Assembly (NCBI GenBank): GCA_028700655.1
Contig: JAQVSG010000001.1
Span: 40,507 to 104,506, forward strand
Direction: 5' to 3'
DNA length: 64,000 bases
Source: Caldisericia bacterium
GTDB taxonomy: Bacteria; Caldisericota; Caldisericia; UBA6126
Part shown: piece after piece, positions 11,938-41,050 of the stretch
Numbering within the stretch: the first letter of the stretch is position 1
Layout of the letters: each line of letters opens with the position of its first letter
The notes under the pieces: generated by a model
Databases searched by the model: none
The model's input: the letters and a program-made list of their open reading frames with translations, nothing else
Told to the model about the DNA's origin: nothing
Program-made: the position numbers and the translations under genes

Positions 11938-14177
11938 ACACCTGTAAACATGTAGAAAAATGGTTACGAGATCATCCTCAAGAGTCTTTGCCAAAATGGA
12001 TACAAAATCATATTCAAGGATGTTCTTCTTGTAAGCAGATTGTAGAGTCTTCTTCTCTTCTTCATACTTTTACCCCGGTTTCGCCTTCTTCAGCGCAATA
12101 CTCTTTCTCGCCAGAATTGGATTGGAAAATACGAAATTGTATCTATACAACGTCTGAAACGTTAAAAAACTCTCAAAGAATCGCGAAAAAAACAGTTTTC
12201 TATTTGCACCGAGGATTTGTCGCGACTTTATCGGCAATATGTTTAATAGTAGCTGTTTTTTTTATGGTACCTGTGGCCAACCAGAATACGACCTACTCTC
12301 TTTTGTTGAACGAGAAGTTTAAAGAAATGATGCAAACGCCTTCTTCTGTTTTTATGATGGAAGTAGATACCATGGAAACAATGGATGACCACTTGCAATT
12401 TGCACGTTACTATTGCGAAACAAAAGAAGAGCGGGAATTCTTATATAGCAATAATGAAGATAGTCGCAACAAACTCCTTTTTGTGAAGTTTTTAGGAATG
12501 CAGTCGGACGTATCGTATTTACAAATCTATCAATATGCACGAAATGATCTGTACTTTCAAGCTATACGAAAGGCCAAGCTTCCTCTTTGGAAAACTTGGA
12601 GAGAGTTTTCTTCCTATATTGAGCAATACACCTTGCTTCCGGGGCAACCCTTTGAATCTTTTGATGCCACTGTTTTGTCTGTGGATTATGCAACAGGAGC
12701 GATAAAAACGGATGTATTTACAGACCCCTTGTTTGCTGATTTTATTATCATGCAACAAGTAACTCCCTTTCGTACTTATCATTTCACAGTGAAAACAATA
12801 TCCTCACAAAACAACATTGTTGCTATTGATTTGCCTCGAGAAAACGATACTTCTTTGCAAGGAAAATTACTTTCTGTTACCAAAAATACAATACGACTGG
12901 AAGGATTCCCAGAGGATCTTTTTGTCAGTGAAAAAGTTCTTCATGATGAAACAGCAAATTCTTATCTTGAAAATGGGGAGTATGTATTTGTTCGTATTGC
13001 ACAAACCAACCAGAACCAGTGGGTTGTTACCTCTTTATCAGTATTACAAGAACCTTCTCCAAGAACTCTAACGGGAAAAATTGTTGAGGTGTACCGCAAC
13101 GGATTTGTCTTAGAGAACCTTGGAATGAGCTTTTTCTTTTCTTCTCCCACCACACCTACCATTTCTCAATATGATATTATTACTGTGCAAGGATTGGATT
13201 ATGGTTCCTTTTTCGTAGTTGAAAAGGTGCTTTCAATAGCCCCCTTCATAGAGGAAAAAGAAGACTATTATTTAGCTTCTCACAAGGAAGAAAAAACCAT
13301 TGCACGAGAGCCTGTTTTTACCCCTCCAAACAGATCCATATCGTCTCCTTCTCCTGTAAATCCTCCCGATCAAATGCCATTAGAAAGTGATATCGTCGTG
13401 GGTATCGATAAGGACCAGTATTATTTTTTAAGCGGGAAAACAGTTCCCAAAGATCAGCTTTCACAATCCCTATCCGCCGGTGAATCTATTCGATATCAGA
13501 GAGAGCAGAACAACATTACCATTCAACGACATTTTATGAATCAAACGCAAGTGGTGCAGTTTACTGTAGAATTTTTAGAACGGTTGCCCAATGGCATTGA
13601 AATTTATCATGCTCCACAAGATGGAAGTCGCATTTATGTCTTCCGCTCTTCTATGGCAGACAAAGGAAATGTTTCTGTGTTTCAAGGAAACGTGGTTTCC
13701 TATGGAACCATTCATATTGCTTTGGAATGGAGAATGTTTTCCTTATCCACTCTTGTCAACATTCAAGCTGTTGTTACTAAAGAAATTGAACGGAACTCTT
13801 TGTATCAATTGGATAATGGCTGTGTGCTAAAAATAGATGATTTCACAGAAATACAGGGCCATGTTCAAGTTGGGAAAACGGTAAAGATTTCGGGTCAATA
13901 TGATCAAAACGTTCTCCGTGGGTATATTGTCCGCGTGGAAAAAGAAATTTTTATGATGCAAGGAGAGATTGTTGATTGGAACAAGGAGCAAAAATGGTTT
14001 CTTTTAGACTCGGGTGTTGTCATTCAAATCCATGAAGCCACTATTTTTCATGGGCAGGGTGTATTAGGAGAGGGCATCTTTGTGTACTGCAAAGTATATC
14101 TGAAAGAAGGTCAATACGTTGCCTCCGATATTGCATGGGAAGAAAACTCAATTCCCGGAACAGGAGACCGCATATGA
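11934..14177 (+). CDS. Anti-sigma factor (zf-HC2 type) with one TM segment and a large extracytoplasmic domain
   Basis: The track start is TTG at 11913. I prefer the in-frame TTG at 11934, which follows AAGGGGGTGG (11921-11930) and overlaps the sigma stop as TTGA. N-terminal HIQGCSSC (Hx3Cx2C). TM segment FVATLSAICLIVAVFFMVPV. About 630 aa lie outside the membrane. Confidence 0.8.
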   Translation: MNTCKHVEKWLRDHPQESLPKWIQNHIQGCSSCKQIVESSSLLHTFTPVSPSSAQYSFSPELDWKIRNCIYTTSETLKNSQRIAKKTVFYLHRGFVATLSAICLIVAVFFMVPVANQNTTYSLLLNEKFKEMMQTPSSVFMMEVDTMETMDDHLQFARYYCETKEEREFLYSNNEDSRNKLLFVKFLGMQSDVSYLQIYQYARNDLYFQAIRKAKLPLWKTWREFSSYIEQYTLLPGQPFESFDATVLSVDYATGAIKTDVFTDPLFADFIIMQQVTPFRTYHFTVKTISSQNNIVAIDLPRENDTSLQGKLLSVTKNTIRLEGFPEDLFVSEKVLHDETANSYLENGEYVFVRIAQTNQNQWVVTSLSVLQEPSPRTLTGKIVEVYRNGFVLENLGMSFFFSSPTTPTISQYDIITVQGLDYGSFFVVEKVLSIAPFIEEKEDYYLASHKEEKTIAREPVFTPPNRSISSPSPVNPPDQMPLESDIVVGIDKDQYYFLSGKTVPKDQLSQSLSAGESIRYQREQNNITIQRHFMNQTQVVQFTVEFLERLPNGIEIYHAPQDGSRIYVFRSSMADKGNVSVFQGNVVSYGTIHIALEWRMFSLSTLVNIQAVVTKEIERNSLYQLDNGCVLKIDDFTEIQGHVQVGKTVKISGQYDQNVLRGYIVRVEKEIFMMQGEIVDWNKEQKWFLLDSGVVIQIHEATIFHGQGVLGEGIFVYCKVYLKEGQYVASDIAWEENSIPGTGDRI

Positions 14178-15835
14178 AAAGACTTTTTCAAATCATAACA
14201 ACAATCTATCTAACCGCACTCTTTTTCGTACCCATGCCTATGTCATTGCATGCAAACGAAGCTTCATCTGGATCGATTCGTCCTGTCCAAAAAACGCAGT
14301 GTAGGGTTTTGTTAAGCAATTACGAAAAAGGGGAGATAACCTCTATGGAATTTCGTCTTTCGCTTTCAGAAAACCCCATACTGGCCGAATCTTGGATTAC
14401 AATACTACTACCAGAATCGTACACGATCCCAGAATTGTTCCGGGAAGATTTTGTTTTCTCTGATACGGTTGCTTTACAGGTTCAAAGGAAGGGAAACAAT
14501 AACATACGAATTCAAACCCCTATCGATATTTCTGAAATCCTTACCATATCTATTTCTCACTATGCGGGGATTCAAAATCCATTGGAAGAAGATACTTTTG
14601 TATGTACTCTTCTTGTAGAATCTTGGGAGGAATTTTTTGAATCGGATTCTATACACCTTATTTCTCCTCAGAATTCCGTATTCTATGAAATACAAAACAA
14701 AATCAAAGCAAATCAACATGGATGGATGTCAGAAATACCAATCCTTCAATTGTATTCCAAAAAAGGAACCGAATTGTATGTTGCCTGGAATGAGGATGAA
14801 TTTCACAAATTGGAAAACCGTATTATTACAATACCCGAAGGGATTCATCGTTGTTCTTTTTATGGATTGCGCCCTTCTGGTCTAAAAGAAGAGATACAGT
14901 CTGTTCTTTGGAAAGTGGATCCGTATCCACCGTCCTGTATTGATGTTTCTCCTTCTCATCGAACCTGGATCAATACGCAAGATCCTTTGGTAAAATTTCA
15001 GATCACCTCCATTTCACCTGCTTTTCTTGTTATATCAGAAGAAGCATATCCTGTTCTAAACAATGAAGTGGAAATACCCTTGTCATTGAATCCTGGGAAG
15101 AATACTGTTTCTTACAGCATTGTCAATCAAGCGGGTCATAGTATCTCTGACGAACTCACTCTTTTTGTGGATATTACTCCTCCTGTTATTACCTTGTACT
15201 CCCCTTCAGAAGAACAGATATATTGCGGATACCATATGATTGTCAATGGAAAGACGGAGCCAGGATGCCTTTTATCTGTCAATGGGATAAAGTTAGAGAT
15301 GGACGCATATGGGAACTTTGCAACGGAAATTCCTATTGCGGAAGGAAAGAATAATGTTATTGTGCGCAGTGAAGATCGGGCAGGGAATGTTACGATCATC
15401 AGTAGAACCTTTTTTCACTATGCAGGGACTGTTTTTGAAATCCAATTGTCTCATCAGAAAGTTTTTTTGAATGAAAAGGAAATCTCGGTGGATCCATTTC
15501 CGTTTCGCGATCCCCAAAATGGCGAAATATATGCTTCCATTCGATTGTTTACGGAATCACTGGGGTATTCTTTACGATGGGATTCAAACTTAAATGCAGC
15601 TATACTAGACAAAAATGGAGTTTTGATTTATGTTCGACCCAATGATTCCATCATTAAAGTGTCTCAAGGAGACAATGTTGAAGAAATAGATATCTATTAT
15701 GCCCCCACCATTGTCGATGGCGTTATTTTTGTACCCATTGAATTTACGAAGAAAATACTTGGTTCCGAAGTAAAATACGATCCAAAACATGAATCTATTT
15801 TTATTATATTTTGTCCCGAAAGGAGTGAGAAATGA
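14174..15835 (+). CDS. Secreted surface protein: one FP-NP module plus the shared C-terminal cassette (OmpL47-like, Ig-like, CuAO-N pair)
   Basis: The ATG at 14174 (AGGAG at 14162-14166) overlaps the anti-sigma stop as ATGA. Signal peptide MKRLFQIITTIYLTALFFVPMPMSLHANE. Module exit ISHYAGIQNPLEEDTFVCTLLV. Ig-like DITPPVITLYSP...VIVRSEDRAGN. CuAO-N: GEIYASIRLFTESLGYSLRWD and DGVIFVPIEFTKKILGSEVKYD. Confidence 0.85.
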   Translation: MKRLFQIITTIYLTALFFVPMPMSLHANEASSGSIRPVQKTQCRVLLSNYEKGEITSMEFRLSLSENPILAESWITILLPESYTIPELFREDFVFSDTVALQVQRKGNNNIRIQTPIDISEILTISISHYAGIQNPLEEDTFVCTLLVESWEEFFESDSIHLISPQNSVFYEIQNKIKANQHGWMSEIPILQLYSKKGTELYVAWNEDEFHKLENRIITIPEGIHRCSFYGLRPSGLKEEIQSVLWKVDPYPPSCIDVSPSHRTWINTQDPLVKFQITSISPAFLVISEEAYPVLNNEVEIPLSLNPGKNTVSYSIVNQAGHSISDELTLFVDITPPVITLYSPSEEQIYCGYHMIVNGKTEPGCLLSVNGIKLEMDAYGNFATEIPIAEGKNNVIVRSEDRAGNVTIISRTFFHYAGTVFEIQLSHQKVFLNEKEISVDPFPFRDPQNGEIYASIRLFTESLGYSLRWDSNLNAAILDKNGVLIYVRPNDSIIKVSQGDNVEEIDIYYAPTIVDGVIFVPIEFTKKILGSEVKYDPKHESIFIIFCPERSEK

Positions 15836-18800
15836 AATCCATACGTTTATTTACAAAGATACGAACGGTTTTTTTCGTCGTTTTGTTTGTGTTCACCACT
15901 CTCATTCCATTGTATGCGAAAGCAGCCGTTACAAGAATCGAAGTAAGCCCCAATGTACAGTGTATAAAAATTGGCGAATCCGTTACTTTTACAGCAACTG
16001 CCTATGACGAAAATGGGTCGGTTGTACCAGAGGCGACATTTCGTTGGTACCAGGAAGGACCCGGAACGGGTTCTCCTTCTTCCAATACGCGTTCTTACAC
16101 TTTTCGGGCAACCAGTTCAGGTCAAGTCCAAATGTTTGTCTCCTCGGGGGACACAAAACTTGTTTTTCGATTTGATGTGGGAGCTACCCAAGTTCGCGAT
16201 GTTCAAATACGGGTGGAACCCAATACTGCCGGAGAACTAGCGAATTATACCGTCATGTTTTACACAGATGAATGTGGGAAATTAAGTCCTGGTGATAAAA
16301 TATATTTGGCTTTTCCCTATGGAACAACCTTTGCCCGTTATTCTGGGTGCGATGCAGTTACCGTGAACGGTATACCCGCTTCCTATTACGTGGAAACCGA
16401 TAAAAATGACAATCAAATTGTCTCGATCACGGTACCCAATTCCTACCCCGACACAACCCTTGTCTATATACGAATATGCCGCGTGCAAAATCCTCGAGGA
16501 GGAGCTTGCTATCGTATGGCTGCAGCCACTAGCAAGCAGCCTTATTGGGCTCTTTCCAACAGTTATGCGATTGTAGGCTCCATCATTACCACTCCCACCG
16601 TAGAAGTAGCCCCCGATATTGTAGGGGAAATAGCGGCATATACCATTCGATTTGAAACCTCTTCAACGGGACGATTGGGCAGTTGTTACGGGGGGTATAT
16701 CATGGTGGAGTTTCCTTATGGCACCAAAGTGCCTACCACTATTGCGGCGGAGCACATTTTGGTGAACGGACAGTATTGTAACGATGCCGACCCTGTTATA
16801 AACGGACGAGTTGTGAAAATATACCCAGGCATGGTTGTGCTAGAAGAGTCCGATGTAAAAGTAGAGTTTCTTTTAGAAGCCGGGATTACCAATCCAACAA
16901 GTTCGGATCAATATCGTTTGGTTGTGTGGACTAATGCCGACAATACAAGGGTCAATTCAAATTACTACAAAATACGCAACAGTGTTATCCAAGATGTAAA
17001 AGTATGGATTGACAAACCTTACATCAATACAAAATCGGAATGGAGAATCACTTTTCAAACTGGCTTAGTGGGGAGAATGAGAGAAAATGGAATCATTACG
17101 ATCTATTTTCCTTCTTCTGTTCGTTTCCCAGAATCATCAGTTCCTGGGGATATTAAGGTAAATGGGGTGCCCACCACAAAACCTGCCATTATCGAAGGAG
17201 CAGGGACATTGAAAATTCAAACCCCAGTTCTGTTTGAAGCACAGAGTCCCGTAGAGATTGTTATAAAGGAAGAGTTTGGTCTTACCAATCCTACATCGGT
17301 AGGTCGATACACCATTAAAGCGCACACAGGGAAAGAAGGAACCAATGTAGAATCCCAAGAATTTGAAATCGGTCCTAGCATGATTGGTGATCTGTCTGTT
17401 CGTATTGGATCTCCTTTTGTATCTGTGAATACATCGATTCAACTCACCTTTACAACGGGTGGTGGTGGTCAACTAACATCGGACAATGGGCAAGTGTATC
17501 TCATTATGCCCCAAGGAATGTATATCCCCAATACAATGGCAAAAGATAGTGTATTGATCAACAATGTTCCCATGAAAACAACACCTTTTTTGAAAAAGGC
17601 AGAGAATCGAATCATTCTCAATGTACCCATTGATATAGGTCCTGAAGCAGTAGTGACAGTCGACTTTTTACAAGAAGCAGGATTGCGAAATCCGGTCACA
17701 CCGGGTGAGTACATTTTTCGAGTGGCCACCAATCGAGAGGTATCTTACATTTCCTCTCCCAAAATTTGGATTCAAGAATCAAGGGTGCAAAATGTCTCTG
17801 TGGATGTTTTGTCCCGTACTGTTGAGCAACCAGCTTCTTTACATATTTCCTTCAAAACCGGCCCCGCTGGTTTTTTGAGTGCGGGAGAAAAAATATTTGT
17901 GTTTTTGGACACTCGTTTCCAGTTTCCCACCGATTATCAACACGGCATTCTATTCAATGAAATAAACGTAGACCTGTTTCCAGTTTTTCTAAAACCCAGC
18001 GAAGGCATGATACAGATTACCCTTCATGAAAACATCGAACCTCTCGAAACCGTTGTTATTCAAATCACTCCTGAAGCAGGCTTTGTGAATCCTTCACAAG
18101 AAGGTGCTTATACATTGGGTGTTTCTACGCAAAGTGAAACACAAACCGTAGCTTCTGAGCCTTTTTCGATTATTCCTTTACCAAAAACAAACATTACCAT
18201 TGAACCTACTTTCCCCGATGGAGATAACCAATGGTATGTGTCCAAGCCAAACATATCCTTCGATGTGTATTCCCAAGAACCAGAATCGATTCAAACCTGG
18301 TTTTCGTTAAATGGGGAAGATTGGATTTTGTATCAAGAGACTCTTGTTCTATCTTCTGGAATATACGAAATACGGTATTATTCGACACAAGGGGATGCAA
18401 AAGAGGAAATCCAATCCATACCCATTAAAATTGACACCTTCCCTCCCTATATACAACTACCCGAAGGCCCCATTTTTACCAATCAACCGATCTACCCATT
18501 TTCGGTTACTATTGTCGAATCTCATTTTCTTAAGGGTATGATTGGAGAGCATGAAGTACTCTCTCTTGTCGAGGGTCAAATGAAGGCGAACTTACGGCTT
18601 GAAGAAGGGGACAATGAATTCTCTATTTTGGTATATGACGAGGCGGGTCATCGAAGTGAAACAACGGTTGTTATAGTTTTAGATCAAACTCCTCCCACGC
18701 TTCAAATTAGCAAACCGTCTCCCTGGCAAAAAACAATTCGGAAAACAATTCCTATTGATGGATATACAGAATCAAATGTGGATGTAACCCTGAATGGAAA

Positions 18801-19317
18801 ACGTCTGTCTGTGGTAGATGGGAAATTTATGACGCAGTTTACCTGTACAAGTGGTATTAATGCTCTTGAGTTTATTGCAACGGATCTGTCTGGAAATGCA
18901 ACAAAGGCAATTGTTCCTGTGCAATACTACGAGAATTTCTGGGTACAATTCTCGATAGGTCAACAAATTGCCTCTTCCTCTATGGGAACACTGAATTTGG
19001 GGTCACCTATTTTTTTACAATCGTCTCATACTATGATTCCTTTAACTGTTTTTACATCTTTATTAGGCTGTGAAGTTGAGTACGAGCCCATTTTTCAAAT
19101 CATCACTGTGAGCAATCCTGATGGCAAAGTTATTCAAGCTCAAATTGGCAATACCACTGCCACTGTGAACGATGAAAAAAGAATTCTCCCAACTCCCCCT
19201 GTAATTCGCAATGGACGAACCTTCATTCCACTTCGATTCTTCGCTGAAGAATTCGGTTTTGTTGTACACTACATCAAAGAACAAAATGCTGTCAAAATGG
19301 AGTATCATGAGAGCTAA
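15832..19317 (+). CDS. Secreted surface protein: Big_2 domain, five FP-NP modules, shared C-terminal cassette
   Basis: 1,161 aa. The ATG overlaps the upstream stop as ATGA. Signal peptide MKSIRLF...LIPLYAKAAV. Big_2: RIEVSPNVQCIKIGESVTFTATAYDENG. Exit hallmarks: RVQNPRGGACY, AGITNPTSSDQY, FGLTNPTSVGRY, AGLRNPVTPGEY, AGFVNPSQEGAY. CuAO-N: VIRNGRTFIPLRFFAEEFGFVVHY. Confidence 0.9.
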   Translation: MKSIRLFTKIRTVFFVVLFVFTTLIPLYAKAAVTRIEVSPNVQCIKIGESVTFTATAYDENGSVVPEATFRWYQEGPGTGSPSSNTRSYTFRATSSGQVQMFVSSGDTKLVFRFDVGATQVRDVQIRVEPNTAGELANYTVMFYTDECGKLSPGDKIYLAFPYGTTFARYSGCDAVTVNGIPASYYVETDKNDNQIVSITVPNSYPDTTLVYIRICRVQNPRGGACYRMAAATSKQPYWALSNSYAIVGSIITTPTVEVAPDIVGEIAAYTIRFETSSTGRLGSCYGGYIMVEFPYGTKVPTTIAAEHILVNGQYCNDADPVINGRVVKIYPGMVVLEESDVKVEFLLEAGITNPTSSDQYRLVVWTNADNTRVNSNYYKIRNSVIQDVKVWIDKPYINTKSEWRITFQTGLVGRMRENGIITIYFPSSVRFPESSVPGDIKVNGVPTTKPAIIEGAGTLKIQTPVLFEAQSPVEIVIKEEFGLTNPTSVGRYTIKAHTGKEGTNVESQEFEIGPSMIGDLSVRIGSPFVSVNTSIQLTFTTGGGGQLTSDNGQVYLIMPQGMYIPNTMAKDSVLINNVPMKTTPFLKKAENRIILNVPIDIGPEAVVTVDFLQEAGLRNPVTPGEYIFRVATNREVSYISSPKIWIQESRVQNVSVDVLSRTVEQPASLHISFKTGPAGFLSAGEKIFVFLDTRFQFPTDYQHGILFNEINVDLFPVFLKPSEGMIQITLHENIEPLETVVIQITPEAGFVNPSQEGAYTLGVSTQSETQTVASEPFSIIPLPKTNITIEPTFPDGDNQWYVSKPNISFDVYSQEPESIQTWFSLNGEDWILYQETLVLSSGIYEIRYYSTQGDAKEEIQSIPIKIDTFPPYIQLPEGPIFTNQPIYPFSVTIVESHFLKGMIGEHEVLSLVEGQMKANLRLEEGDNEFSILVYDEAGHRSETTVVIVLDQTPPTLQISKPSPWQKTIRKTIPIDGYTESNVDVTLNGKRLSVVDGKFMTQFTCTSGINALEFIATDLSGNATKAIVPVQYYENFWVQFSIGQQIASSSMGTLNLGSPIFLQSSHTMIPLTVFTSLLGCEVEYEPIFQIITVSNPDGKVIQAQIGNTTATVNDEKRILPTPPVIRNGRTFIPLRFFAEEFGFVVHYIKEQNAVKMEYHES

Positions 19318-21142
19318 CTTCCTATATTCCTTGGCTTTTTTATGTTATGGAATCACATTTTTCCTTTTTATTCGTTTATTGATATGGAAAAAACTAAGTA
19401 AAAAATACTACTGGACAGCAAAATCGAAACTTTCACTTGCCGATGTAAAGATGATATCAGCTTTTGAGGACATACCACTTCCATTCATTTCTATTATGAT
19501 CCCTGCGAAAAACGAAAGCGCTGTCATCCGACACACTATTCACAATGCTATACACTTGAGTTATCCATCCCATCGATATGAGCTGCTTGTTATTGTAGAT
19601 GAAAGAGAACATATTGAAAATGAGAAGAGAATTGAAAAAGTATGGGAAGAAATTACCAAATGGAGAAAAGAAGTTGGGAATTCTCAACCATTTGATAAAA
19701 GAAGAGTAGATTTTTCTTTTAAATCCATTTCGAAAGAGTTACAACAAGCTGTATTGATGTACAAAATGAAGCATCTGTTATGGGGTCCTTTTTACCATGA
19801 ATTGTATGTAGAATTTTCGTCGACACTTTCTTATACATCCGATCCCTCTGTTTTGCATGCTCTGAAATGTTCTCTAGAAGAAGCGTTAAAGAAAATGCCC
19901 TACACTCGAAAAGATGTCAAAAAATGCTTAATGATATCCTTACAGAAAGCATTTCCCTCGACAGAACGTGTGGTTCTAAAGAAGATGATGTTGAAACTGG
20001 AAGAGACTATTTATTCTTTTGTGCATACAATTTCTATTCACGAATTGCAAGATATTACAAGAGACGACGTAAGAGATGCCTTTCCCACCACAAAGTCTAT
20101 AGCAGAAGATATGATGGAAGATGCTTCCAAACAAGGTGTAATGTTGAAGGTTGTTTCGGTTCCTACGAATTACACAGGCGTGTATCCTCGAACCTATACA
20201 AATCAGAATACCCATTCTACAAAAGGAAGAGCTCTAAATTATGCCCTAGACGAGGTAGATTCTTTGACAGATATAGTCGGGTTTTACGATGCCGAAAGTC
20301 GCCCGGACCACTCAGTTCTTCTGCACGTCGCCAAAGTATATTTGCAAAAGAAAGAAAACCTTCCCATTCTACAAGGACCTCTTTACCAAGTCCGAAACTA
20401 TTATACAATGGGTCTTGTTTCGCGCATTGGAGGTCTTTTTAAGGCCGTATCCCACGAGTGGTATCTTCCTATCATTTTTAAAAAAGTTCCGTTTGTAGGG
20501 GGTACCAATCTATTTGTTTCGAAAGCACTGCTGTTCAAAATTCACGGTTTTAACCCCGAGGCTTTAACCGAAGACTTGGATCTTGGGATTCGAGCCTATA
20601 TGATGCATAACGTTCATGTAGAGTTTCTGCCCGTGATTTCTACAGAGCAGACTCCTCCTTTTTGGAGTCAGTTTTTTAAACAACGATTGCGTTGGGCTTC
20701 AGGTCACCTGCAAGTGATGAGTGAGATACGAAAGACACACCGTGAATTATACTGGCAGTTGTTCTGGAAAGGACCTTTTGAGTGGGTTTTATACCAATTT
20801 TCTGCGATTGTTGTCATTCTTATGAATATCGGGTTTATAGTGTCTAAAATGGGGTGGATTCCAAAACAAATGATTCCTGTTAACCCTGTTTTACAAATGG
20901 TTCTTTTATTTATGAACATTCCTTACATTTTTTTCTCTTTTTACTGTTTTTATCACTACCAGTTCACTTTTGAAAAACATTTTCTATCACTGGATTCTTT
21001 TCCAGGAATGGAATGTATAAAACTAGTTTTATCGAGTGTGCTGGTGTTTCTTCTTCCTCTGCCCTATATCTGGGCGTTGATTCTTCACATTCTCGATAAA
21101 AAACCTAAAACCTGGGTGAAAACCCCAAGAACCTGTGAATAA
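19307..21142 (+). CDS. Membrane-bound processive family-2 glycosyltransferase, paralog of 9245..10669, with a large internal insertion
   Basis: The track start is 19211. I prefer the ATG at 19307 (MRANFLYSLAFLCYGITFF, a TM segment right after the start), which overlaps the upstream gene by 11 nt. 19286 is an alternative start. Motifs: IMIPAKNESAVI, STKGRALNYAL, FYDAESR, QRLRWASG, ending TWVKTPRTCE. Confidence 0.8.
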   Translation: MRANFLYSLAFLCYGITFFLFIRLLIWKKLSKKYYWTAKSKLSLADVKMISAFEDIPLPFISIMIPAKNESAVIRHTIHNAIHLSYPSHRYELLVIVDEREHIENEKRIEKVWEEITKWRKEVGNSQPFDKRRVDFSFKSISKELQQAVLMYKMKHLLWGPFYHELYVEFSSTLSYTSDPSVLHALKCSLEEALKKMPYTRKDVKKCLMISLQKAFPSTERVVLKKMMLKLEETIYSFVHTISIHELQDITRDDVRDAFPTTKSIAEDMMEDASKQGVMLKVVSVPTNYTGVYPRTYTNQNTHSTKGRALNYALDEVDSLTDIVGFYDAESRPDHSVLLHVAKVYLQKKENLPILQGPLYQVRNYYTMGLVSRIGGLFKAVSHEWYLPIIFKKVPFVGGTNLFVSKALLFKIHGFNPEALTEDLDLGIRAYMMHNVHVEFLPVISTEQTPPFWSQFFKQRLRWASGHLQVMSEIRKTHRELYWQLFWKGPFEWVLYQFSAIVVILMNIGFIVSKMGWIPKQMIPVNPVLQMVLLFMNIPYIFFSFYCFYHYQFTFEKHFLSLDSFPGMECIKLVLSSVLVFLLPLPYIWALILHILDKKPKTWVKTPRTCE

Positions 21143-21229
21143 AACAATCTTCTGAAAATCTCAGACATTTCCATATTCCCGCTATATTTTGCAAAAAGTA
21201 AAAATATTTCGATTTTTTTCTAATTTCTA

Positions 21230-21258: not shown

Positions 21259-21264
21259 AAGCAT

Positions 21265-22455
21265 ATGCGAATAGATCGATTTAAGGAACGGGACATTTTA
21301 AAACAAGTTGAACCGTATCGTGAATCGAAAGAAGCAGTAATTATCACAGGTATGAGGAGGACCGGGAAGACTACTCTTTTACAGTATTTATTCGAGACAA
21401 CGGAATCAGAGAACAAGCTTCTACTAGATTTAGAAAATCCGTTAAATCGAAAGTATTTTGAAGAAGAGAATTTTGATAAAATACAGGCTTCTTTAGAAAT
21501 TCTCGGTATAAATTTTAGTGAGCCTTCGTACATTTTTTTGGATGAGATCCAGCTATTTAAGAATATTCCGAGTATTGTGAAGTATTTTATTGATCACTTC
21601 CAAACGAAGTTTTTCTTAACAGGATCAACAAACTACTATACAAGGAAGCAGTTTGAAGAATCGTTGGCTGGTCGAAAGGTTGTATTTGAGCTATATCCTC
21701 TTACCTTTAAAGAGTTTATAAAATTCAGTGGAAAAGGTTTGAATCCTCCCACCCAAAAAAGTAGTATTTCCAGGCCCATTTTCGAAAAACTTTCTACTTT
21801 GTACGATGAATATATTATGTTCGGGGGGTTTCCCGAAGTTGTTCTGAAGCAAAGTGTTACGGAAAAAAATGCTGCTTTGGACGATATATTTCGATCGTAT
21901 TTTAATCTAGAAGTTGTGCAAATGAGCAATTATCGAAAAAGTGCTGTTATCCGTGATTTAATGCTTCTTCTTATGAACCGAGCCGGGGAGAGAATTGATG
22001 TTCAGAATATTTCGCAGGAGCTTGGAATATCCAGAGCTACTACGTATTCTTATCTGGAATTCTTGGAAGGCTCCTATTTCATTAAACTTCTCAAGCCCTT
22101 TAATCTAGGATCTAAAATGGAGATTCGGAAATCGAACAAAATCTATATTTGTGATGTAGGTTTGGTTCGTCATTTTGCCCACGCGGCAGAAGATTGTTTG
22201 TTCGAGAACAGTGTTTTTCAAAATTTGCGCACAAAATGTGATATAAAATATTATGAGAGAAAAAGTGGTACACAAATACATTTCATTTGCGATGATCAAA
22301 ACAATAAAGTAGCCTACGATACAGCACTTCACCCTCGCAAGACAGACCTAACAAGACTGTCTAGAATTGCTAGTGAAATCAATGTTGATGAGTATTCTAT
22401 CATCTCAAAATACTATTGTGATTTAGAACACACAATGTACGGCTTTATGGTGTAA
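21265..22455 (+). CDS. AAA+ ATPase with a DUF4143-type C-terminal domain
   Basis: 396 aa. Walker A ITGMRRTGKTTLLQYL, Walker B YIFLDEIQ, and a C-terminal region typical of the AAA_14/DUF4143 family. It looks more AT-rich by eye than its neighbours (not computed). Confidence 0.8.
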   Translation: MRIDRFKERDILKQVEPYRESKEAVIITGMRRTGKTTLLQYLFETTESENKLLLDLENPLNRKYFEEENFDKIQASLEILGINFSEPSYIFLDEIQLFKNIPSIVKYFIDHFQTKFFLTGSTNYYTRKQFEESLAGRKVVFELYPLTFKEFIKFSGKGLNPPTQKSSISRPIFEKLSTLYDEYIMFGGFPEVVLKQSVTEKNAALDDIFRSYFNLEVVQMSNYRKSAVIRDLMLLLMNRAGERIDVQNISQELGISRATTYSYLEFLEGSYFIKLLKPFNLGSKMEIRKSNKIYICDVGLVRHFAHAAEDCLFENSVFQNLRTKCDIKYYERKSGTQIHFICDDQNNKVAYDTALHPRKTDLTRLSRIASEINVDEYSIISKYYCDLEHTMYGFMV

Positions 22456-22457
22456 CA

Positions 22458-22487: not shown

Positions 22488-22527
22488 ATGAAATTCACGA
22501 GTTTCCTGCACTAAAGGAGGAACGACT

Positions 22528-33366: not shown

Positions 33367-33409
33367 CGACTTGTTGTAAAGTTTACTCCTACAACGAAGG
33401 AGGAAGGAC

Positions 33410-36400
33410 ATGAGCGCGAAAAAGATCATTAGTTTGTTGTTAGGATTTATGGTAATGTTCTCTATGGTTTCGGTTGGGTATTCCAGAATCACTACTTTTG
33501 TAAATGAACCCAACCCGAATACTGCAGGGACTCCTGCTAATCATACTTTAAAATTTACGAACACAGAAGAAATCCCTTTGGGAGGTCGTATTGAGATAGA
33601 GTTTCCCTCTGCTTTCGATTTATCGACTTTATCCATGGGAGCTCCTTTTGATGAGACAGATTTTGTGGTTACTTTACAAAAACCAGCAGCTTCTCCTACT
33701 CCTCCCGTTGTAAAGCCTGGATCTGTTATGCGTGATGGAAAGAAGTTGTCTTTTGAAATCGGCGACTCTAAAGTAGATCCTGGTTTTCAGAGAATTGAAA
33801 TCATCAATACAAAAATATTGAATCCCCCTACCCCAGGAAATTACACCATTCTACTACGAACCTACGATACGGCTGCGAATGGTCAAAGGCAGATTGAGTA
33901 TGCAACGTCTTCTCAATTTGAAATTGTAACAGAGATGAATCGTGCTTCTGTATACCCAGAACCAAACCGAGCGGGAGAAAGAGCCAAATACACAATTCGT
34001 TTCAAACTTGGAACGGGAACGAGTAGAAGTCTGTATGCTGGAGATCGTATTCGTATTCAGTGGGATGCCAATCTTGTACCCGGAGGCGATCCTACTAACG
34101 CTACGTTTATCCAAGCTCCCATTCCCAAAGAGTCTGTTACCGTAAACGGAGTGCATCCGCAAGTCGATCCACAATTTATCTCAGAAGGAATTCCAGAACC
34201 AAATCCCACAGGAAGTTTTTGTGAGATGGATGTTATTCTACCCAATAACATTAGTACGTCTTCTTCGTATGCTCCTGAAATTGTGATTGTGTTTGATCAA
34301 TCGGCAGGGATTATTAACCCCGATGGAGAATTGGACAATCGTACGATTGCAATCAGTGTCTACAGAAGCGATGGAATAACAGTGGTAGAGCCTGCTCTTG
34401 AATCCAATGCTTATTCTCTGAAAACATCCCTATTTGTTCCGGCTGTTTTTGTACAACCTGATAAAACAAATGCAGTCGCGGAATATCATGTTGCTTTCAA
34501 AGTAGGAGAGCAAGGGAAACTGATTGCGAATTCAGGAAAAATAACCGTTGAATTTCCTTCCGAAACCATTGTTCCCTCCACAATATCTGCATTTAGCATA
34601 AAAAATGCTTCTCCCCCTCCTGCTGTTGAACCTGTATTGCCCTATGCTGGTGGTACGGCAAACGCTCCTTATGATCCTCAAATCACAGGAAACAAGGTTT
34701 CTTTTGTGGTCCCAGAAACAGTTATGCCTGGTCAATACGTGTGTTTTATTTTTAAAACCGATGCAGGCATTCGCAACCCTGACAGAGAAGGTATTTATCA
34801 TTTAAAACTTTCAACATCGGCCGAACCTTCTGTGGTAACATCGCAGAATTATCGAATCCAGGGTTATAGTACAACAAGTGTTACCGTGGTTCCTAACAAA
34901 TCAGAAGAAGAAGCCGAATGGGATATCCGTTTTAAACTTGGATCTTCTGCTGGGTTGTATACATTTAACAACGATACTATTGCCATTACTTTTCCTCAAG
35001 GAACAGGTCTTCCTGCCATTGATATTCCTGCTGGGGATATCACCATCAATGGCGTTGCAACGACAGCACCAGCTGTGGTTACTCCGGCTACAAGGCAGGT
35101 TACCATCCTAGTACCGCAATCGATTGAACAAGGTTCCAATGTTGTAGTACGCTTTAAAAAACAAGCAAAAATAAACGTCCCCACCATTGATATAACCCCC
35201 AAATATTTTACGTTGAAAATTGTAGTTTCGACCGAAACAGATCCCTACATATCCGACCCTTTTGAAGTGTATACATCCATTGACAATCTGGTTGTATTAC
35301 TAAACGATCCAGGGGTTGGTGTTGTTTCTCAACAACAGGTTTCCTTTACACTAGGAGATGTGGATGAAGGATTGAAAGCCAATGAAAGCATTACGTTTGA
35401 GTATCCCGCAGGAACCAATATCCCTACTTTTGTCAATGCAGGGAATATTCGAATCTTGAACGTAACTTCTGCTGTGGAAATGAATCCATCGTCGGTACAA
35501 GCAAGTGGTCAGAAGATTAAAATTACTTTACCCACGACATTTCCTACTATTTTAGAGAAAGATCCTGTGCGTGTTACCTTCTTATCAAGCTGTGGTATTA
35601 CCAACCCAACCGAACCGGGATCCTATACTCTGAAAGCCTATACTTCGAAAGAAACCACGCCGGTTCAATCCGAATTCTATACGATTGGTACTGTCTCTGG
35701 AGCAGTTCAAATTTTCGTAGACCCAAAAGCATCTGGGTATTGTATCCCACAACCTACCATCCCCAAAAACAATAAAGGAGCAGAGTATACCATACAATTC
35801 CTAACCGGATCTAGTGGTGGTATCTCCAACGGTCAGTATGTGACAGTTGTATTCCCTCCTTCGTATGCCACGATTTTTAATACCAACTATCCGGCTCCTA
35901 CCAATATCATTCCTTCTGGTACCATTATGATCAACGATCAACCTGTAACCATGGGATCAAATATTGTGGATGCTCCTGCTTCCTATCCTCCTGGTTCCAA
36001 AATGGTTCAAATTCCTTTGCCTGTTTCAATTGGAACCAATGAAAAAGTGTCGATTCGATTTCTAGAATCAGCCGATATTGACAACCCTGTTGTTACAATC
36101 ACTCCGCAACCTTTTACTATCCATGTATTTACAGCCACAGAATCCTCCGCTGTATCGGGCACTTTTTATCTGTATTCTCAAATAGAAGGTATTGGGGGCA
36201 CGCCCATTAATAGCAATTTGCCCATCAATGTAACTTTATCGAATTATACCGCGGGGCGAGATTGCGGTATTGAGTTTGGTTTTAAAACTGGCCCAATAGG
36301 AGCTTTAAAAGCAAATTCCGATACAGTTTCTGTGATGCTTCCACAAGGCACACGACTTCCTTCCTATATCGCCTCTGGCACCATCGTGGTAGATCAAGAT

Positions 36401-39400
36401 GGTATTATAAGCGGAAACGAAGTAGCTGTCTTAAATCCTAAAATTGATCACAATATTGTGACATTTACAGTCCCATTTGATGTAGGAAATCTTGACGACC
36501 TGTATGTGTATTTTACAGAGCAAGTGGGAATGCTAAACCCCAGTGCTCCAGGGAATTACCAAGTGTTTGTCAAAACGTCTTCTGAAGAAAACTATATTGG
36601 ATCGCTAGAATACACTATTAATCCAGTTTCCTACACCATTCCTACGGTCACCATCAAACCTGCTTACATCGGTGTCGATGGCACCTATACAATTCGTTTT
36701 CAAACCGGTTCGTATGGAAACTTGAACATGGGCGATACCATCAATCTACGCTTTCCCCTAGATACTACTATTCCTGCTTCCTTAAACTCCTCCTATGTTC
36801 GCGTCAACAATGTTCGTTGTTCAATTAACCCGTTAACGAACCCTGCTGATCGAACCATACAAATTTATAGCCCCGTGGCCATCAATGGGAACTCGACCAT
36901 TGAAATCACTCTTCTCGAAGATGCCAAAGTGAAGAACCCAACGATAGCGGGCAAATACAACATGGAAATGTGGACCCTACGAGAAGGTTCTAAAAACAAT
37001 CCATTGATATCTAGCGAGTATGAGATTTATGCCAATACCAGCCCCCTTCATATTACTACCGATATTTCTCCTTGCACTCCCTATACCAATGCACAATACA
37101 CTTGTGAGTTTTATACCCCCGAGGCTATTGTTGCCAACACAACAGAAGTGGAAATCACCTTTCCAAATGGTACCTTTATTCCCTCTTCTCTCGATTCATA
37201 CACCATTATGTTTGGCTCTACATACTGTAGGACAACACCAACCGTGGCACAATATACCGTTACCTTGGTGTCTCCTATTGCGGTTGGGAAAAATGACCTT
37301 GTGAAGATAACCTTCACAAAAGAAGCCGATATCCAAAATACAAGCGAAGGGTCTCACAAAATGTATTTTGAAGTTGTTGGACCCGGATTGGTTCGTAGAG
37401 ATCTAGATGTATATATTTGTCCCGATTTAGATATAAACCGTGTAGAAATCACTCCCAATGATGTCCGAATTTCAGAAGGCAAATCGCAAACCTTTACCGC
37501 GTTTGCCTACGATGCCAATGGAAATCGAATTACTCGTGGTGTCGTATACCACTGGAGCTTGTCTGGTGGCATTGGCTGGCTAAGTAGCTTCAAAGAAGAA
37601 AGAACCGAATTCTACGCCAGTGATGTAGGCAAAGGAAGCGTTACCGTTACAGTATCATACGGTTCTCAATCGTCGATTACTGTGTCCTCTATGGTCACAG
37701 TAGTAGGTCCTTTGGATCGCATCGTGCTATCACCCACTTCCATTACCACTTCTCGTGGTAAAAAGACACGATTCATGGTGACTGCTTACGATGGACAAGG
37801 AGAAATGATCGACGATGTTACCTATACTTGGTCTGTCGAACCTTCTCTGGGAACAATTGATAAATTAACCAACCCCAACGAAATCGACTTTTTAGCCTCA
37901 TCAGAAGGTCGATGTACCTTGCATGTAACTGTTAAACAGAAAGATGTGTATCGAGAATCATCCGCCGATATTGAAATTCGAAACGGAGTTCATGATTTGC
38001 GTTTTGATCCTCCTTCGTATCCGGCCCCCTTTGAACCGTCCCAAATCATAGGACCCATTGTTGTAAAAATGGTCGATCAAAGTGGAAATCCCATTGTTCA
38101 AAATAGTATCTATACCATTACTCTGAAATCTTCCTCCACCACCACTCGATTTTCTTTGGATGGAGCCACATGGACGGAACAGCACACAATAGATGTGAAC
38201 GTATCCCCTAATTTTTCCGAATCGATGCCCTTTTATGTGTCTGACTTGGAACAGGGCAATATTTCTGTTACTGCTACATCCAAAGATTACAATGCTGCCA
38301 TTATGACGCTTAATATCCGGGGTATTAAAAAACGGTTGATGTTTCAGACTCCTCCTCGGCTTTTGCGTATTAACAAACCATCTGATCCCATCAAGGTACA
38401 GCTAGTTGATATCTTTGGTAATGCGTACAAAATGAACAAAGACATATTGATTGACGTCAAAGCCGACTCCCATACCGTGACTTTTTCAACCTTTTCTTCT
38501 GTAGAAGAATGGCTTCCTCAAAGTAGTATTTTGTTGAAAGCGGGAGAAGAGAATAAGGATTTTTATTGTATGGATTCGCGAGAAGGATCATTCAATATAA
38601 CAGTATCGCATCCCTTGTTTGGTAGCATTACTCAGATGGCAATGGTGGCTTCTCCAGGTTCTGTAAGTATGCCTGAAGTAACAGTAAACCCTTCCACCGT
38701 AGGTGCAAAAGCCACCTATGAAATTGGTTTTACTCTAGGACTTGATGGAAGCTTGGGTACAATATCCGATACGATTACCATCCAATTTCCCAAAGAAACC
38801 ATTCTTCCTAACTATCTGTCTGCACAAGATGTTCTCGTGAATGATAATCCAATGTTCACAACACCCTATATTGATGCTGCCAAGAAATTTATTCGCATTG
38901 TTCCCCCCATTGAGTTAAATGGAGGACAAAAAATTGAGATCGTGATCAAAGGGATCACCAATCCTTCGACAGAAAATGATTATCATATTACTGTCTTTAC
39001 CTCAAAACAAACGACACCTTCTCTTTCTTCTGCCTACCATATTGGTGTATCGTCCGTTACAGATGTAACTGTATCCCCTGACCCTGTAATTACAGGGGAA
39101 ATTGCCCTTTATGAAATTGCATTCCGAACGGGTGTGTCTGGTGCCTTAGAATCGGGAGATACAATTGTTATATTGTTTGATTACAATTTTACATTGCCCA
39201 AGAAAATTACCAGAAATACAGTGATGGTGAATGGAATCATTCCTTCAGCCGATCCCATTGTATCCGGAAAATCTGTAATTGTGAAAGTAGATCGAGCTAT
39301 TGGGATTAACACCAACGTGGAAATCGTTCTTACTAAAGAGGCAGGTATTGTAAATCCTGAATTTCCAGGTATGTATCAATGCAGACTCTACACATCCAAG

Positions 39401-41050
39401 GAAGAATCCAGTGTAGAATCAGAACCTTTCCAAATTGTAGATCGCTCTACTTTACAACGTATCAAAGTCCAATTGAAACCCGCTAGTATTGCTTCCGAAA
39501 CGCAAATTACCATCACTGGAAATCTAGGACCGTATGGTGCTTTAAACCGTGGAGAAAACATTTATGTTTCTTTACACCCGTTTATCATGCCAGAAGATCT
39601 ACATGGATCGTACGTTTCCGTAAACGGTATTCGGTTCAGTGGGACTCTAGAAGTTCAAAAGAAAGTTGTTTCGATACCTCTTTCCATGAATCTTTCCAAT
39701 GGAGCAGATATTACAATTACTTTCTACAACCAGGCAGGTATTATCAATCCAACAGTTCCTGGATACGATTATAGAATTAGTATGTGGACCGACAAAGAAC
39801 CAGCACAGGTGATGTCAGAACCATTTACGGTGGAGCCAAACCTAGAAATTGATTGTTTACTAACTCCGGATGCTCCCGATGGAATATCCAATTGGTATAT
39901 TACAGCCCCCACAGCTATTTTTACATCGAATGTGATGGGAACTTTCTATTACCGTATCGATAACAGTATTGAAAAAGAGTATACGAATCCAGTGTTGTTA
40001 AATCTTCCCGGAAAACACACCTTGTACTATCGTTTGGTAACCAATATGGGTACAGAATCAGAAGAATACAACGTAACTTTTGCATACGACGGAGACGGAC
40101 CGGAAATTCTTACGAATATTGAATCAGAAGTTGTCTATACGCGGGATCAGACATTTGCCTTGTCGATCCGTATCCAAGATATTTCTCCTGTTAAGGTGAC
40201 TGTGAATCAAAAGCCAATTACTCTCATTGAAAATACCTATTCCGCACTTTTGAATTTGCACAATGGAGAGAATATTCTTCAAATTAAAGCGGAAGATGAA
40301 GCTGGGAATATAACCTATGCCACTTACCGCATTATTGTGAAAGTGAATCCACCTATTCTCGTCTTGTCTTCCCCGCAACTTTATCAAACGGTGGAGGATG
40401 TGTATTTTTCCACTACACCCAATGGAAATGAACTGTATGCCAATATTCGAATAAAAGGCAGTACTGAAATGGGTATAGAGAAAGTACAAGTAATGACTCC
40501 TGCAAAACCTGATGAAACCTTTTTGCTCGATGTTGATCATATGGGAACCTTTGATCGAGTGGTGGGAATGTCGGTATTAGCAGGAGACAACATCTTAAAA
40601 GTACAAGTGGAAGATTTAGTTGGAAATACCAACAGTGTAACCATCTCTTTCATTGTACGATGTACTCTCAAATTGCGCATTGGAGTTGAAAAAGGGTATT
40701 TGAATGCAACACCACTTACGTTAGATGCAGCACCCTATCTGAAATACAATATGCACACCATGATACCCTTCCGATTGGTTGCAGAATCGTTTGGCGCTAA
40801 AGTTGGATGGCTTGAATCAGAAAGACGAGTTTCTTATGATTTCCGAGGGGTTCATATTGATTTATGGATTGATCAACTGAAAGCTGTGATTACAGAGTCG
40901 GATGGAAGAAAAACAACCAAAGCAATGCCTGCAGAACCCGAACTAAAAAATGGAAGAACCATGATACCTCTCCGTTTTGTGGCTGAATCTATGGGCATGA
41001 AAGTGGGTTGGGATGCAAAACTATGGGAGGCTTCTTTAAGCTATCCATAG
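33410..41050 (+). CDS. Giant secreted surface protein (2,546 aa): 9 FP-NP modules, 2 Big_2, 2 Ig-like domains, 3 FP-NP modules, OmpL47-like, Ig-like domains, CuAO-N pair
   Basis: Lies 43 nt after the previous stop, with RBS GAAGGAGGAAGG. Signal peptide MSAKKIISLLLGFMVMFSMVSVGYS. Hallmarks: KILNPPTPGNYTILLRT, AGIRNPDREGIYHLKLSTS, CGITNPTEPGSYTLKAYTS, VGMLNPSAPGNYQVFVKTS, AKVKNPTIAGKYNMEMWT, GITNPSTENDYHITVFTS, AGIVNPEFPGMYQCRLYTS, AGIINPTVPGYDYRISMWT. C-terminal ELKNGRTMIPLRFVAESMGMKVGW. Confidence 0.93.
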   Translation: MSAKKIISLLLGFMVMFSMVSVGYSRITTFVNEPNPNTAGTPANHTLKFTNTEEIPLGGRIEIEFPSAFDLSTLSMGAPFDETDFVVTLQKPAASPTPPVVKPGSVMRDGKKLSFEIGDSKVDPGFQRIEIINTKILNPPTPGNYTILLRTYDTAANGQRQIEYATSSQFEIVTEMNRASVYPEPNRAGERAKYTIRFKLGTGTSRSLYAGDRIRIQWDANLVPGGDPTNATFIQAPIPKESVTVNGVHPQVDPQFISEGIPEPNPTGSFCEMDVILPNNISTSSSYAPEIVIVFDQSAGIINPDGELDNRTIAISVYRSDGITVVEPALESNAYSLKTSLFVPAVFVQPDKTNAVAEYHVAFKVGEQGKLIANSGKITVEFPSETIVPSTISAFSIKNASPPPAVEPVLPYAGGTANAPYDPQITGNKVSFVVPETVMPGQYVCFIFKTDAGIRNPDREGIYHLKLSTSAEPSVVTSQNYRIQGYSTTSVTVVPNKSEEEAEWDIRFKLGSSAGLYTFNNDTIAITFPQGTGLPAIDIPAGDITINGVATTAPAVVTPATRQVTILVPQSIEQGSNVVVRFKKQAKINVPTIDITPKYFTLKIVVSTETDPYISDPFEVYTSIDNLVVLLNDPGVGVVSQQQVSFTLGDVDEGLKANESITFEYPAGTNIPTFVNAGNIRILNVTSAVEMNPSSVQASGQKIKITLPTTFPTILEKDPVRVTFLSSCGITNPTEPGSYTLKAYTSKETTPVQSEFYTIGTVSGAVQIFVDPKASGYCIPQPTIPKNNKGAEYTIQFLTGSSGGISNGQYVTVVFPPSYATIFNTNYPAPTNIIPSGTIMINDQPVTMGSNIVDAPASYPPGSKMVQIPLPVSIGTNEKVSIRFLESADIDNPVVTITPQPFTIHVFTATESSAVSGTFYLYSQIEGIGGTPINSNLPINVTLSNYTAGRDCGIEFGFKTGPIGALKANSDTVSVMLPQGTRLPSYIASGTIVVDQDGIISGNEVAVLNPKIDHNIVTFTVPFDVGNLDDLYVYFTEQVGMLNPSAPGNYQVFVKTSSEENYIGSLEYTINPVSYTIPTVTIKPAYIGVDGTYTIRFQTGSYGNLNMGDTINLRFPLDTTIPASLNSSYVRVNNVRCSINPLTNPADRTIQIYSPVAINGNSTIEITLLEDAKVKNPTIAGKYNMEMWTLREGSKNNPLISSEYEIYANTSPLHITTDISPCTPYTNAQYTCEFYTPEAIVANTTEVEITFPNGTFIPSSLDSYTIMFGSTYCRTTPTVAQYTVTLVSPIAVGKNDLVKITFTKEADIQNTSEGSHKMYFEVVGPGLVRRDLDVYICPDLDINRVEITPNDVRISEGKSQTFTAFAYDANGNRITRGVVYHWSLSGGIGWLSSFKEERTEFYASDVGKGSVTVTVSYGSQSSITVSSMVTVVGPLDRIVLSPTSITTSRGKKTRFMVTAYDGQGEMIDDVTYTWSVEPSLGTIDKLTNPNEIDFLASSEGRCTLHVTVKQKDVYRESSADIEIRNGVHDLRFDPPSYPAPFEPSQIIGPIVVKMVDQSGNPIVQNSIYTITLKSSSTTTRFSLDGATWTEQHTIDVNVSPNFSESMPFYVSDLEQGNISVTATSKDYNAAIMTLNIRGIKKRLMFQTPPRLLRINKPSDPIKVQLVDIFGNAYKMNKDILIDVKADSHTVTFSTFSSVEEWLPQSSILLKAGEENKDFYCMDSREGSFNITVSHPLFGSITQMAMVASPGSVSMPEVTVNPSTVGAKATYEIGFTLGLDGSLGTISDTITIQFPKETILPNYLSAQDVLVNDNPMFTTPYIDAAKKFIRIVPPIELNGGQKIEIVIKGITNPSTENDYHITVFTSKQTTPSLSSAYHIGVSSVTDVTVSPDPVITGEIALYEIAFRTGVSGALESGDTIVILFDYNFTLPKKITRNTVMVNGIIPSADPIVSGKSVIVKVDRAIGINTNVEIVLTKEAGIVNPEFPGMYQCRLYTSKEESSVESEPFQIVDRSTLQRIKVQLKPASIASETQITITGNLGPYGALNRGENIYVSLHPFIMPEDLHGSYVSVNGIRFSGTLEVQKKVVSIPLSMNLSNGADITITFYNQAGIINPTVPGYDYRISMWTDKEPAQVMSEPFTVEPNLEIDCLLTPDAPDGISNWYITAPTAIFTSNVMGTFYYRIDNSIEKEYTNPVLLNLPGKHTLYYRLVTNMGTESEEYNVTFAYDGDGPEILTNIESEVVYTRDQTFALSIRIQDISPVKVTVNQKPITLIENTYSALLNLHNGENILQIKAEDEAGNITYATYRIIVKVNPPILVLSSPQLYQTVEDVYFSTTPNGNELYANIRIKGSTEMGIEKVQVMTPAKPDETFLLDVDHMGTFDRVVGMSVLAGDNILKVQVEDLVGNTNSVTISFIVRCTLKLRIGVEKGYLNATPLTLDAAPYLKYNMHTMIPFRLVAESFGAKVGWLESERRVSYDFRGVHIDLWIDQLKAVITESDGRKTTKAMPAEPELKNGRTMIPLRFVAESMGMKVGWDAKLWEASLSYP
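33500..37420 (+). repeat. Protein-level tandem array of nine FP-NP modules (canonical and degenerate exits largely alternate); limits approximate
   Basis: Modules 1, 3, 5, 7 and 8 have canonical NP-x(2-4)-G-x-Y exits. Modules 2, 4, 6 and 9 are degenerate: IINPDGELDNRTIAISVY, INVPTIDITPKYFTLKI, IDNPVVTITPQPFTIHV, IQNTSEGSHKMYFEV. Confidence 0.7.
37427..37985 (+). other. Two Big_2 domains inside the 2,546-aa protein
   Basis: VEITPNDVRISEGKSQTFTAFAYDANGNRI...YHWSLSG...GSVTVTVSYGSQSSITVSSMVTV and IVLSPTSITTSRGKKTRFMVTAYDGQGEMI...YTWSVEP...CTLHVTVKQKDVYRESSADIEI. Confidence 0.75.
40661..41047 (+). other. C-terminal pair of CuAO-N-like repeats (putative envelope anchor)
   Basis: LKLRIGVEKGYLNATPLTLDAAPYLKYNMHTMIPFRLVAESFGAKVGWLESERRVSY and IDLWIDQLKAVI...EPELKNGRTMIPLRFVAESMGMKVGWDAKLWEASL. 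Confidence 0.85.

Follow-up and report, generated by a model that had tools for sequence, protein, structure and literature searches.

The 64,000-nucleotide window analysed here (contig JAQVSG010000001.1, positions 40,507 to 104,506; coordinates below are those of the window) belongs to a metagenome-assembled genome (MAG) of a Caldisericia bacterium, 1.95 Mb in size and 89% complete. It carries four paralogous genes, referred to as A, B, C and D, whose products share one architecture and one polarity of domain order, i.e. a signal peptide, one or more immunoglobulin (Ig)-like modules and a C-terminal cassette terminated by the CuAO-N domain (PF07833). The module numbers are frozen across genera, the genes are under purifying selection and the terminal domain is used throughout the genome. 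We regard it as rather probable that A–D are wall-retained, Sec-secreted, non-enzymatic surface Ig rods of fixed, graded length, in which the module arrays constitute the functional part.

The modules were counted with a profile hidden Markov model (HMM) seeded on the five repeats of B and then iterated. Modules of ca. 130 residues are present once in A, five times in B, 12 times in D and 21 times in C, the last number consisting of 19 regular and 2 divergent modules (residues 2542–2795). An initial annotation, made from the letters of the window, had described open reading frames (ORFs) starting at 14174, 15832, 22528 and 33410 with 1, 5, 12 and 19 plus 2 modules. All four are present as described on the plus strand and the HMM reproduces the counts, the 19 plus 2 modules belonging to the gene at 22528 and the 12 to that at 33410. 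Successive modules are mostly separated by only 0–4 residues and are 15–37% identical among themselves. A recent expansion of the arrays by slippage or recombination was rejected because Tandem Repeats Finder detected no repeats at the DNA level.

A single module is predicted to fold into an Ig-like sandwich with a confidence score (pLDDT) of 97.8. Its nearest solved folds are BslA (top match, TM-score 0.54, 9% identity), YcnI and domains of Gram-positive pilins and MSCRAMM proteins, all at TM-scores of ca. 0.5 and below 15% identity. A search of the module profile against the sequences of the PDB gave nothing significant (best E 0.04). An isopeptide-bond mechanism as in pilins was dropped, the module consensus having no conserved Lys. 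In the Pfam copy used, which does not contain the families PF27071 and PF27332 present in precomputed annotations of relatives, the module appears to have no curated family and to be only remotely like DUF2808 (PF10989) and BslA (PF17735; PDB 4bhu). These nearest named relatives are single-domain proteins, not arrays. DUF2808 reaches a summed score of 51.6 bits over C, but single modules score 20–22.5 bits (cut-off 25.3) and match model positions 80–133 only; BslA matches C weakly with 21 bits, below its cut-off of 38.7.

C and D are laid out alike: the array comes first, a Big_2-like pair and two more Ig domains follow, and three modules precede the cassette. The Big_2-like pairs of the two proteins are homologues of one another and of the N-terminal domain of B. 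Within C, two subtypes alternate over modules 3–12, with identities of up to 52% between modules of the same parity. The alternation is strict over modules 3–10 (23560–26862), and module 12 (27346–27792) falls into the even set. This clustering by parity shows that a di-module unit was duplicated inside C. No one-to-one correspondence exists between the modules of C and D. In the module tree 27 of the 50 branches are unsupported, and the tree was used only for the odd/even clades of C and the colinearity of E18 and F84.

The cassette of ca. 390 residues starts with a small barrel, continues with a pair of BIg/Glucodextran_B Ig domains and closes with the PF07833 double repeat. Its common origin, proposed in the initial annotation, is borne out by the last 480 residues of A–D, which are colinear and significantly similar whichever two of the four proteins are compared (six pairs; blastp E 1e-15 to 1e-66, 20–31% identity). 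Pfam likewise recovers the proposed order of Ig-like domains followed by CuAO-N repeats in all four proteins, with Glucodextran_B (PF09136) at 31.7–49.5 bits (gathering cut-off 27) and Cu_amine_oxidN1 (PF07833) at the extreme C-terminus with 57.5 (A), 82.5 (B), 110.2 (C) and 88.9 bits (D; cut-off 24.2). An alignment of 52 cassettes displays three conserved blocks: WY...G.H...Y in the first, the two Ig domains each closed by A.D.AGN in the second, and the double repeat L.IG...A.VNG...LD..P.I.NGRT.VPLRF in the third. The first block corresponds to a segment termed OmpL47-like beforehand. Its conservation is real, but the NCBIfam OmpL47-type barrel (NF047446) matches B, C and D with only 20.2–24 bits against a cut-off of 40, and A matches just the full-length OmpL47 model with 19.7 bits against 250, so the label is best taken as a resemblance only. 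AlphaFold2 predicts the cassette of C as a string of β domains (mean pLDDT 94.9), for which Foldseek returns generic multi-Ig strings; the best global matches include, weakly, the S-layer proteins of H. volcanii, B. anthracis (Sap) and D. radiodurans (HPI) at TM-scores of ca. 0.2–0.27. The profile of the cassette Ig domains matches SiiE, Lap, Bap and glucodextranase in the PDB, the BIg repeats with E-values of 3e-9 to 6e-8.

Relatives were collected with B as the single query. They originate from bioreactor and sediment MAGs, and the orthologues of B are found on records named uncultured Caldisericota or Caldisericia. One further record (locus L030, DAIMET010000010.1) is titled 'Calditrichota bacterium' and encodes a B orthologue of 80% identity with the same neighbours as in Caldisericota MAGs; its taxonomic label is probably wrong. 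Across the family the gene order is GAF – ECF sigma – anti-sigma – A – B – GT2 – AAA_14 – C – D – rimP – nusA. Five relatives from three genera keep both this order and the module numbers 1/5/21/12 of A, B, C and D, with the provisos that the single module of A is below threshold in G010 and that the contig piece read for G006 contains only C and D. The alignments of orthologues are colinear from end to end at 43–90% identity (down to 28% for A), and orthologues of only 43–48% identity still hold exactly 1/5/21/12 modules. The initially proposed family of proteins of graded length is therefore supported, and the lengths are fixed. Copy-number variation in homologous loci is not seen in the five relatives but occurs in other families. 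One genome of another family has 1/5/12 modules and a contig-cut array of at least 13; in more distant families the counts are 26/12 or 5/3/5/2. The rods are evenly conserved from one end to the other and show no hypervariable distal end, the exception being the more variable N-terminal Ig domain of B. Measured against the closest relative, dN/dS is ca. 0.04 in D, 0.05 in C, 0.06 in B and 0.17 in A, while nusA has 0.025; these values are rough as dS is near saturation (1.2–1.6). Purifying selection acts over the entire length of the proteins.

The family extends beyond the four paralogues originally described: two further proteins with four modules and the full cassette are encoded elsewhere in the genome (C18:16477–19521 and C84:15059–17992), and four other ORFs contain one or two modules. 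PF07833 itself is found with 77 matches in 63 ORFs and lies within 15 residues of the stop codon in 51 of them. Glucodextran_B directly precedes the tail in 17 of 39 other CuAO-N proteins scanned, the passengers of which comprise, among others, β-propellers, HYDIN-type Ig, BACON and cohesin domains and a C25 peptidase. The last parts of the cassette are consequently not specific for the family. An expanded PF07833 repertoire exists in all 31 genomes of the class searched, and the domain is a candidate for the dominant C-terminal surface-retention module of the whole class. Neither an LPXTG motif nor a C-terminal transmembrane or hydrophobic segment is present in A–D, which are acidic (pI 4.7–5.1); a search of the genome gave no sortase match; and SLH domains, found by Pfam in none of A–D, occur in only three ORFs of the genome. 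Like the SLH and CWB2 modules of monoderm surface proteins, CuAO-N is thus one terminal module, non-covalent in those systems, on dozens of unrelated passengers, but here the tail is PF07833, a putative wall binder, with 51 ORFs carrying it at the C-terminus against three with SLH.

A separate observation concerns a membrane protein of 1055 residues with tandem Ser/Thr-kinase-like domains, encoded outside the window on the minus strand (C67:13165–16329, locus L042). It has one transmembrane segment (residues 787–809), and its outer region ends in CuAO-N. In PknB-type kinases the corresponding outer position is held by PASTA domains, and by analogy the protein may be a wall-sensing kinase using CuAO-N.

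Arrays of the same module are widespread. The module profile retrieves 2,573 representative proteins at E ≤ 1e-3 among 1.84 billion, named examples being from candidate division KSB1 ('T9SS type A sorting domain-containing protein'), Bacteroidota, Tepidibacillus and other Bacillota. In these relatives the arrays begin directly after the signal peptide. CuAO-N terminates 53 of the top 150, and another 53 have a tail like that of type IX secretion system (T9SS) substrates, the remainder being mostly fragments; module numbers cluster at 4, 5, 12 and 21–25 in the CuAO-N class and at 10 in the T9SS class. The latter includes a large class from other phyla (P0023–P0059) of proteins of ca. 1600 residues with exactly 10 modules and a T9SS-like tail. 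Because this class spans many clusters of less than 50% identity, a fixed module number is not peculiar to Caldisericota. The KSB1 and Bacteroidota proteins (e.g. MDZ7269160.1 and MBX7150246.1) resemble A–D in their N-terminal arrays of fixed number (ca. 10) but differ in the T9SS type A sorting domain (FlgD_ig/Por_Secre_tail), which Pfam does not detect in A–D, and in lacking the barrel-BIg-CuAO-N cassette. The terminal sorting domain is therefore exchanged in accordance with the type of envelope, which supports a cell-proximal C-terminus. The same orientation, already assumed in the initial annotation, is likely because the N-terminal signal peptide is the sole hydrophobic segment of each protein and because CuAO-N ends 51 unrelated proteins.

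In the reading we favour, A–D would be secreted by the Sec pathway via the N-terminal signal peptide, each as an uninterrupted string of β-sandwich domains with the array in front of the cassette. The class to which the organism belongs has no outer membrane of the BamA type and lacks sortase. The CuAO-N tail would be the general C-terminal retention module of the lineage and would most probably hold the proteins non-covalently at the wall, at peptidoglycan or an associated glycan, with the arrays projecting outward from the held end. The arrays, not terminal "tips", would form a surface coat with a structural or adhesive role, and its dimensions would be subject to selection. The notion of different N-terminal tips displayed at different heights is not supported: in A, C and D the array directly follows the signal peptide, and an N-terminal Ig domain outside the module family is confined to B. 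Wall binding by CuAO-N is putative, with indirect support from its C-terminal position in 51 ORFs. For PF07833 in general such binding has only been predicted, the domain often occurring in wall hydrolases (PMC4137172), and PaSOD, which has a signal peptide and carries PF07833, remained with the cells and was not found in the culture medium (PMC10432803). Several points weigh against our proposal. A CuAO-N probe failed to label Paenibacillus thiaminolyticus cells (bioRxiv 10.64898/2026.09.23.753664), and in PaSOD the CuAO-N half-domain drives homodimerisation (PMC10432803). The extended shape of the rods and their lengths of ca. 20 (A), 40 (B), 80 (D) and 110 nm (C) are estimates assuming ca. 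4 nm per domain. An adhesive role is a guess since no ligand-binding domain was found in A–D, and the strength of the purifying selection is blurred by the near-saturated dS. Finally, some complete or near-complete genomes of the class (G029, G023 and G024) have only 2–6 modules, so that long arrays are not essential to the envelope of the phylum.

It is also conceivable, though unlikely, that A–D are classical fibrillar adhesins comparable to SiiE, Bap, SasG or LapA, with the arrays as passive stalks and the function residing in the binding of particles, polymers or cells in biofilms or granules. The 1–21 tandem modules with linkers of 0–4 residues are stalk domains of the kind expected for such adhesins, the fold neighbours of the module include Gram-positive pilin and MSCRAMM domains, the bioreactor and sediment origin of the relatives would suit this lifestyle, and B possesses a more variable N-terminal Ig domain. 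In addition, the BIg repeats of the giant adhesins (Salmonella SiiE, 2yn3; Marinomonas/Pseudomonas Lap-type, 6xi3; Acinetobacter Bap, 7dm0) are sequence homologues of the two cassette Ig domains, and these proteins, like A–D, are secreted non-enzymatic Ig strings with very short linkers. However, their stalks are built from near-identical repeats, exported by the type I secretion system and retained at the outer membrane, whereas A–D use another module, a Sec signal peptide and a CuAO-N tail, and have old repeats of 15–37% identity free of DNA-level repetition, in a number that is fixed across genera and not variable as in typical adhesin stalks. Moreover, A, C and D possess no recognisable head, neither Pfam nor NCBIfam identifying an adhesive or ligand-binding domain in any of the four proteins, and the distal end is not more variable than the rest.

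Quite unlikely in our view is a role as envelope struts or sheath, in which the fixed rods would be molecular rulers or lattice parts of the outer membrane-like envelope layer which has been reported for Caldisericum exile, an organism without BamA (PMC4104836). CuAO-N would then anchor inward and the rods would keep outer layers at defined distances or constitute these layers themselves, equivalent to the layered architecture of the initial annotation. The idea gains from the absence of Omp85/BamA in all 31 genomes of the class searched (22 of them ≥90% complete), from module numbers frozen across genera in proteins of which C and D change at a rate nearly as low as that of NusA, from the weak S-layer matches of the cassette, and from the capability of CuAO-N to mediate protein–protein association (PMC10432803). 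A Gram-positive-type MurT/GatD has also been reported (PMC11915815). The counterweight to the strut idea is the occurrence of near-complete class genomes with only 2–6 modules together with the differing counts in other families (26/12; 5/3/5/2), owing to which long rods cannot be a requirement for an envelope common to the phylum. A single spacer would, furthermore, not be expected to come in four to six different lengths, and the S-layer matches are those of generic multi-Ig strings. Still less likely is the bolder version that the frozen rod lengths (1, 4, 4, 5, 12 and 21 modules) are molecular rulers which build or space the BamA-less outer membrane-like envelope of Caldisericota; if so, the outer compartment of the phylum would be delimited by Ig rods acting as a protein scaffold and not by a lipid outer membrane.

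A comparable rod of fixed length, attached to the wall through a terminal binding domain, is the spacer Omp-alpha of Thermotoga, whose lineage is likewise deep-branching, related to thermophiles and equipped with an atypical outer layer. Omp-alpha, however, forms a coiled coil, carries an SLH domain and is membrane-anchored in the toga; A–D differ in being Ig arrays without a distal membrane anchor.

Least probable of all is a released matrix in which CuAO-N oligomerises and shed proteins self-assemble into an extracellular, BslA-like biofilm coat, as the BslA fold likeness and the weak BslA match in C, the dimerisation of PaSOD and the negative wall labelling with the CuAO-N probe might suggest, since the likeness is faint (21 of the 38.7 bits required, 9% identity), the tail also occurs on enzymes and on the ectodomain of a membrane kinase, a distribution more in keeping with retention than with the assembly of a coat, homologous arrays have T9SS tails, which are surface-sorting signals, and PaSOD itself was not found in the medium.

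The genes of the locus and the parts of A–D are compiled in Table 1. The anti-sigma factor has one transmembrane segment (residues ca. 103–121) followed by an outer domain of ca. 630 residues with a weak match to DUF5666. For A the earliest ATG lies at 14135, but the start at 14174 is favoured because it has a GGAG 7 nucleotides upstream and an ATGA overlap with the stop codon of the anti-sigma gene. The same overlap recurs at the A–B junction, and the two would couple the anti-sigma factor to A, and A to B, translationally. With the membrane topology of the anti-sigma factor, this makes it probable that the two short rods, A and B, respond to an envelope signal. The glycosyltransferase family 2 (GT2) protein between the A/B and C/D pairs, for which a sequence search of the PDB revealed no relative, may be the enzyme that produces a glycan of the wall or the surface. 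The AAA_14/DUF4143 ATPase is probably outside the rod system. Its gene is 98.5% identical to the counterpart in G005, against 79–90% for the flanking genes, with a dS of 0.57 against 1.2–1.9 in the other genes compared, and may reflect a recent exchange or an unusually strong constraint. Scans for promoters and terminators yielded fewer promoter-like matches than in shuffled sequences and about as many terminator-like ones, and were therefore disregarded. Upstream, the window begins with a large secreted protein with a CuAO-N end (2–2545), followed by a secreted C25 (gingipain-like) peptidase of 2218 residues with an internal CuAO-N (2576–9232) and a second GT2 gene on the minus strand (9245–10669).

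Table 1. Features of the A–D locus in window coordinates (ECF, extracytoplasmic function).
Feature	Position	Strand	Description	Basis
ECF-type sigma factor	11371..11937	+	Head of the A–B sub-operon	Pfam Sigma70_r2, r4_2, Sigma70_ECF; syntenic in relatives
ZAS-type anti-sigma factor	11913..14177	+	754 residues, HxxxCxxC motif	Sequence; kept upstream of A in relatives
Protein A	14174..15835	+	553 residues from 14174; signal peptide first	
A, 1 module	14294..14668	+		
A, cassette	14669..15832	+		
A, CuAO-N	15467..15805	+		
Protein B	15832..19317	+	1161 residues; signal peptide first	
B, Big-like N-terminal Ig domain	15916..16194	+		
B, 5 modules	16195..18180	+		
B, cassette	18181..19314	+		
Membrane GT2 glycosyltransferase	19211..21142	+	Between the A/B and C/D pairs	Pfam Glyco_trans_2_3; position kept in relatives
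AAA_14/DUF4143 ATPase	21265..22455	+	Between B/GT2 and C	
Protein C	22528..33366	+	3612 residues; signal peptide first	
C, 16 modules	22630..29559	+		
C, Big_2-like pair	29560..30150	+		
C, 2 divergent modules	30151..30909	+	BslA-like	
C, 3 modules	30967..32154	+		
C, cassette	32155..33363	+		
C, CuAO-N	33025..33354	+		
Protein D	33410..41050	+	2546 residues; signal peptide first	
D, 9 modules	33491..37381	+		
D, insert	37382..38665	+	Big_2-like pair and two other Ig-like domains	
D, 3 modules	38666..39841	+		
D, cassette	39842..41047	+		
D, CuAO-N	40700..41026	+		

Caldisericota are widespread anaerobes with an envelope that looks diderm by microscopy (PMC4104836) and genomes devoid of BamA. 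With the genes A–D, specific candidates are at hand for the structures beyond the wall of these organisms, and the ligand of PF07833 would be directly testable. Beyond the phylum, their stalk module of ca. 130 residues is present, apparently without a curated family, in ca. 2,600 representative proteins of several phyla. Each orthologue has kept its module number even between distant relatives, which is unusual among surface proteins built from repeats.

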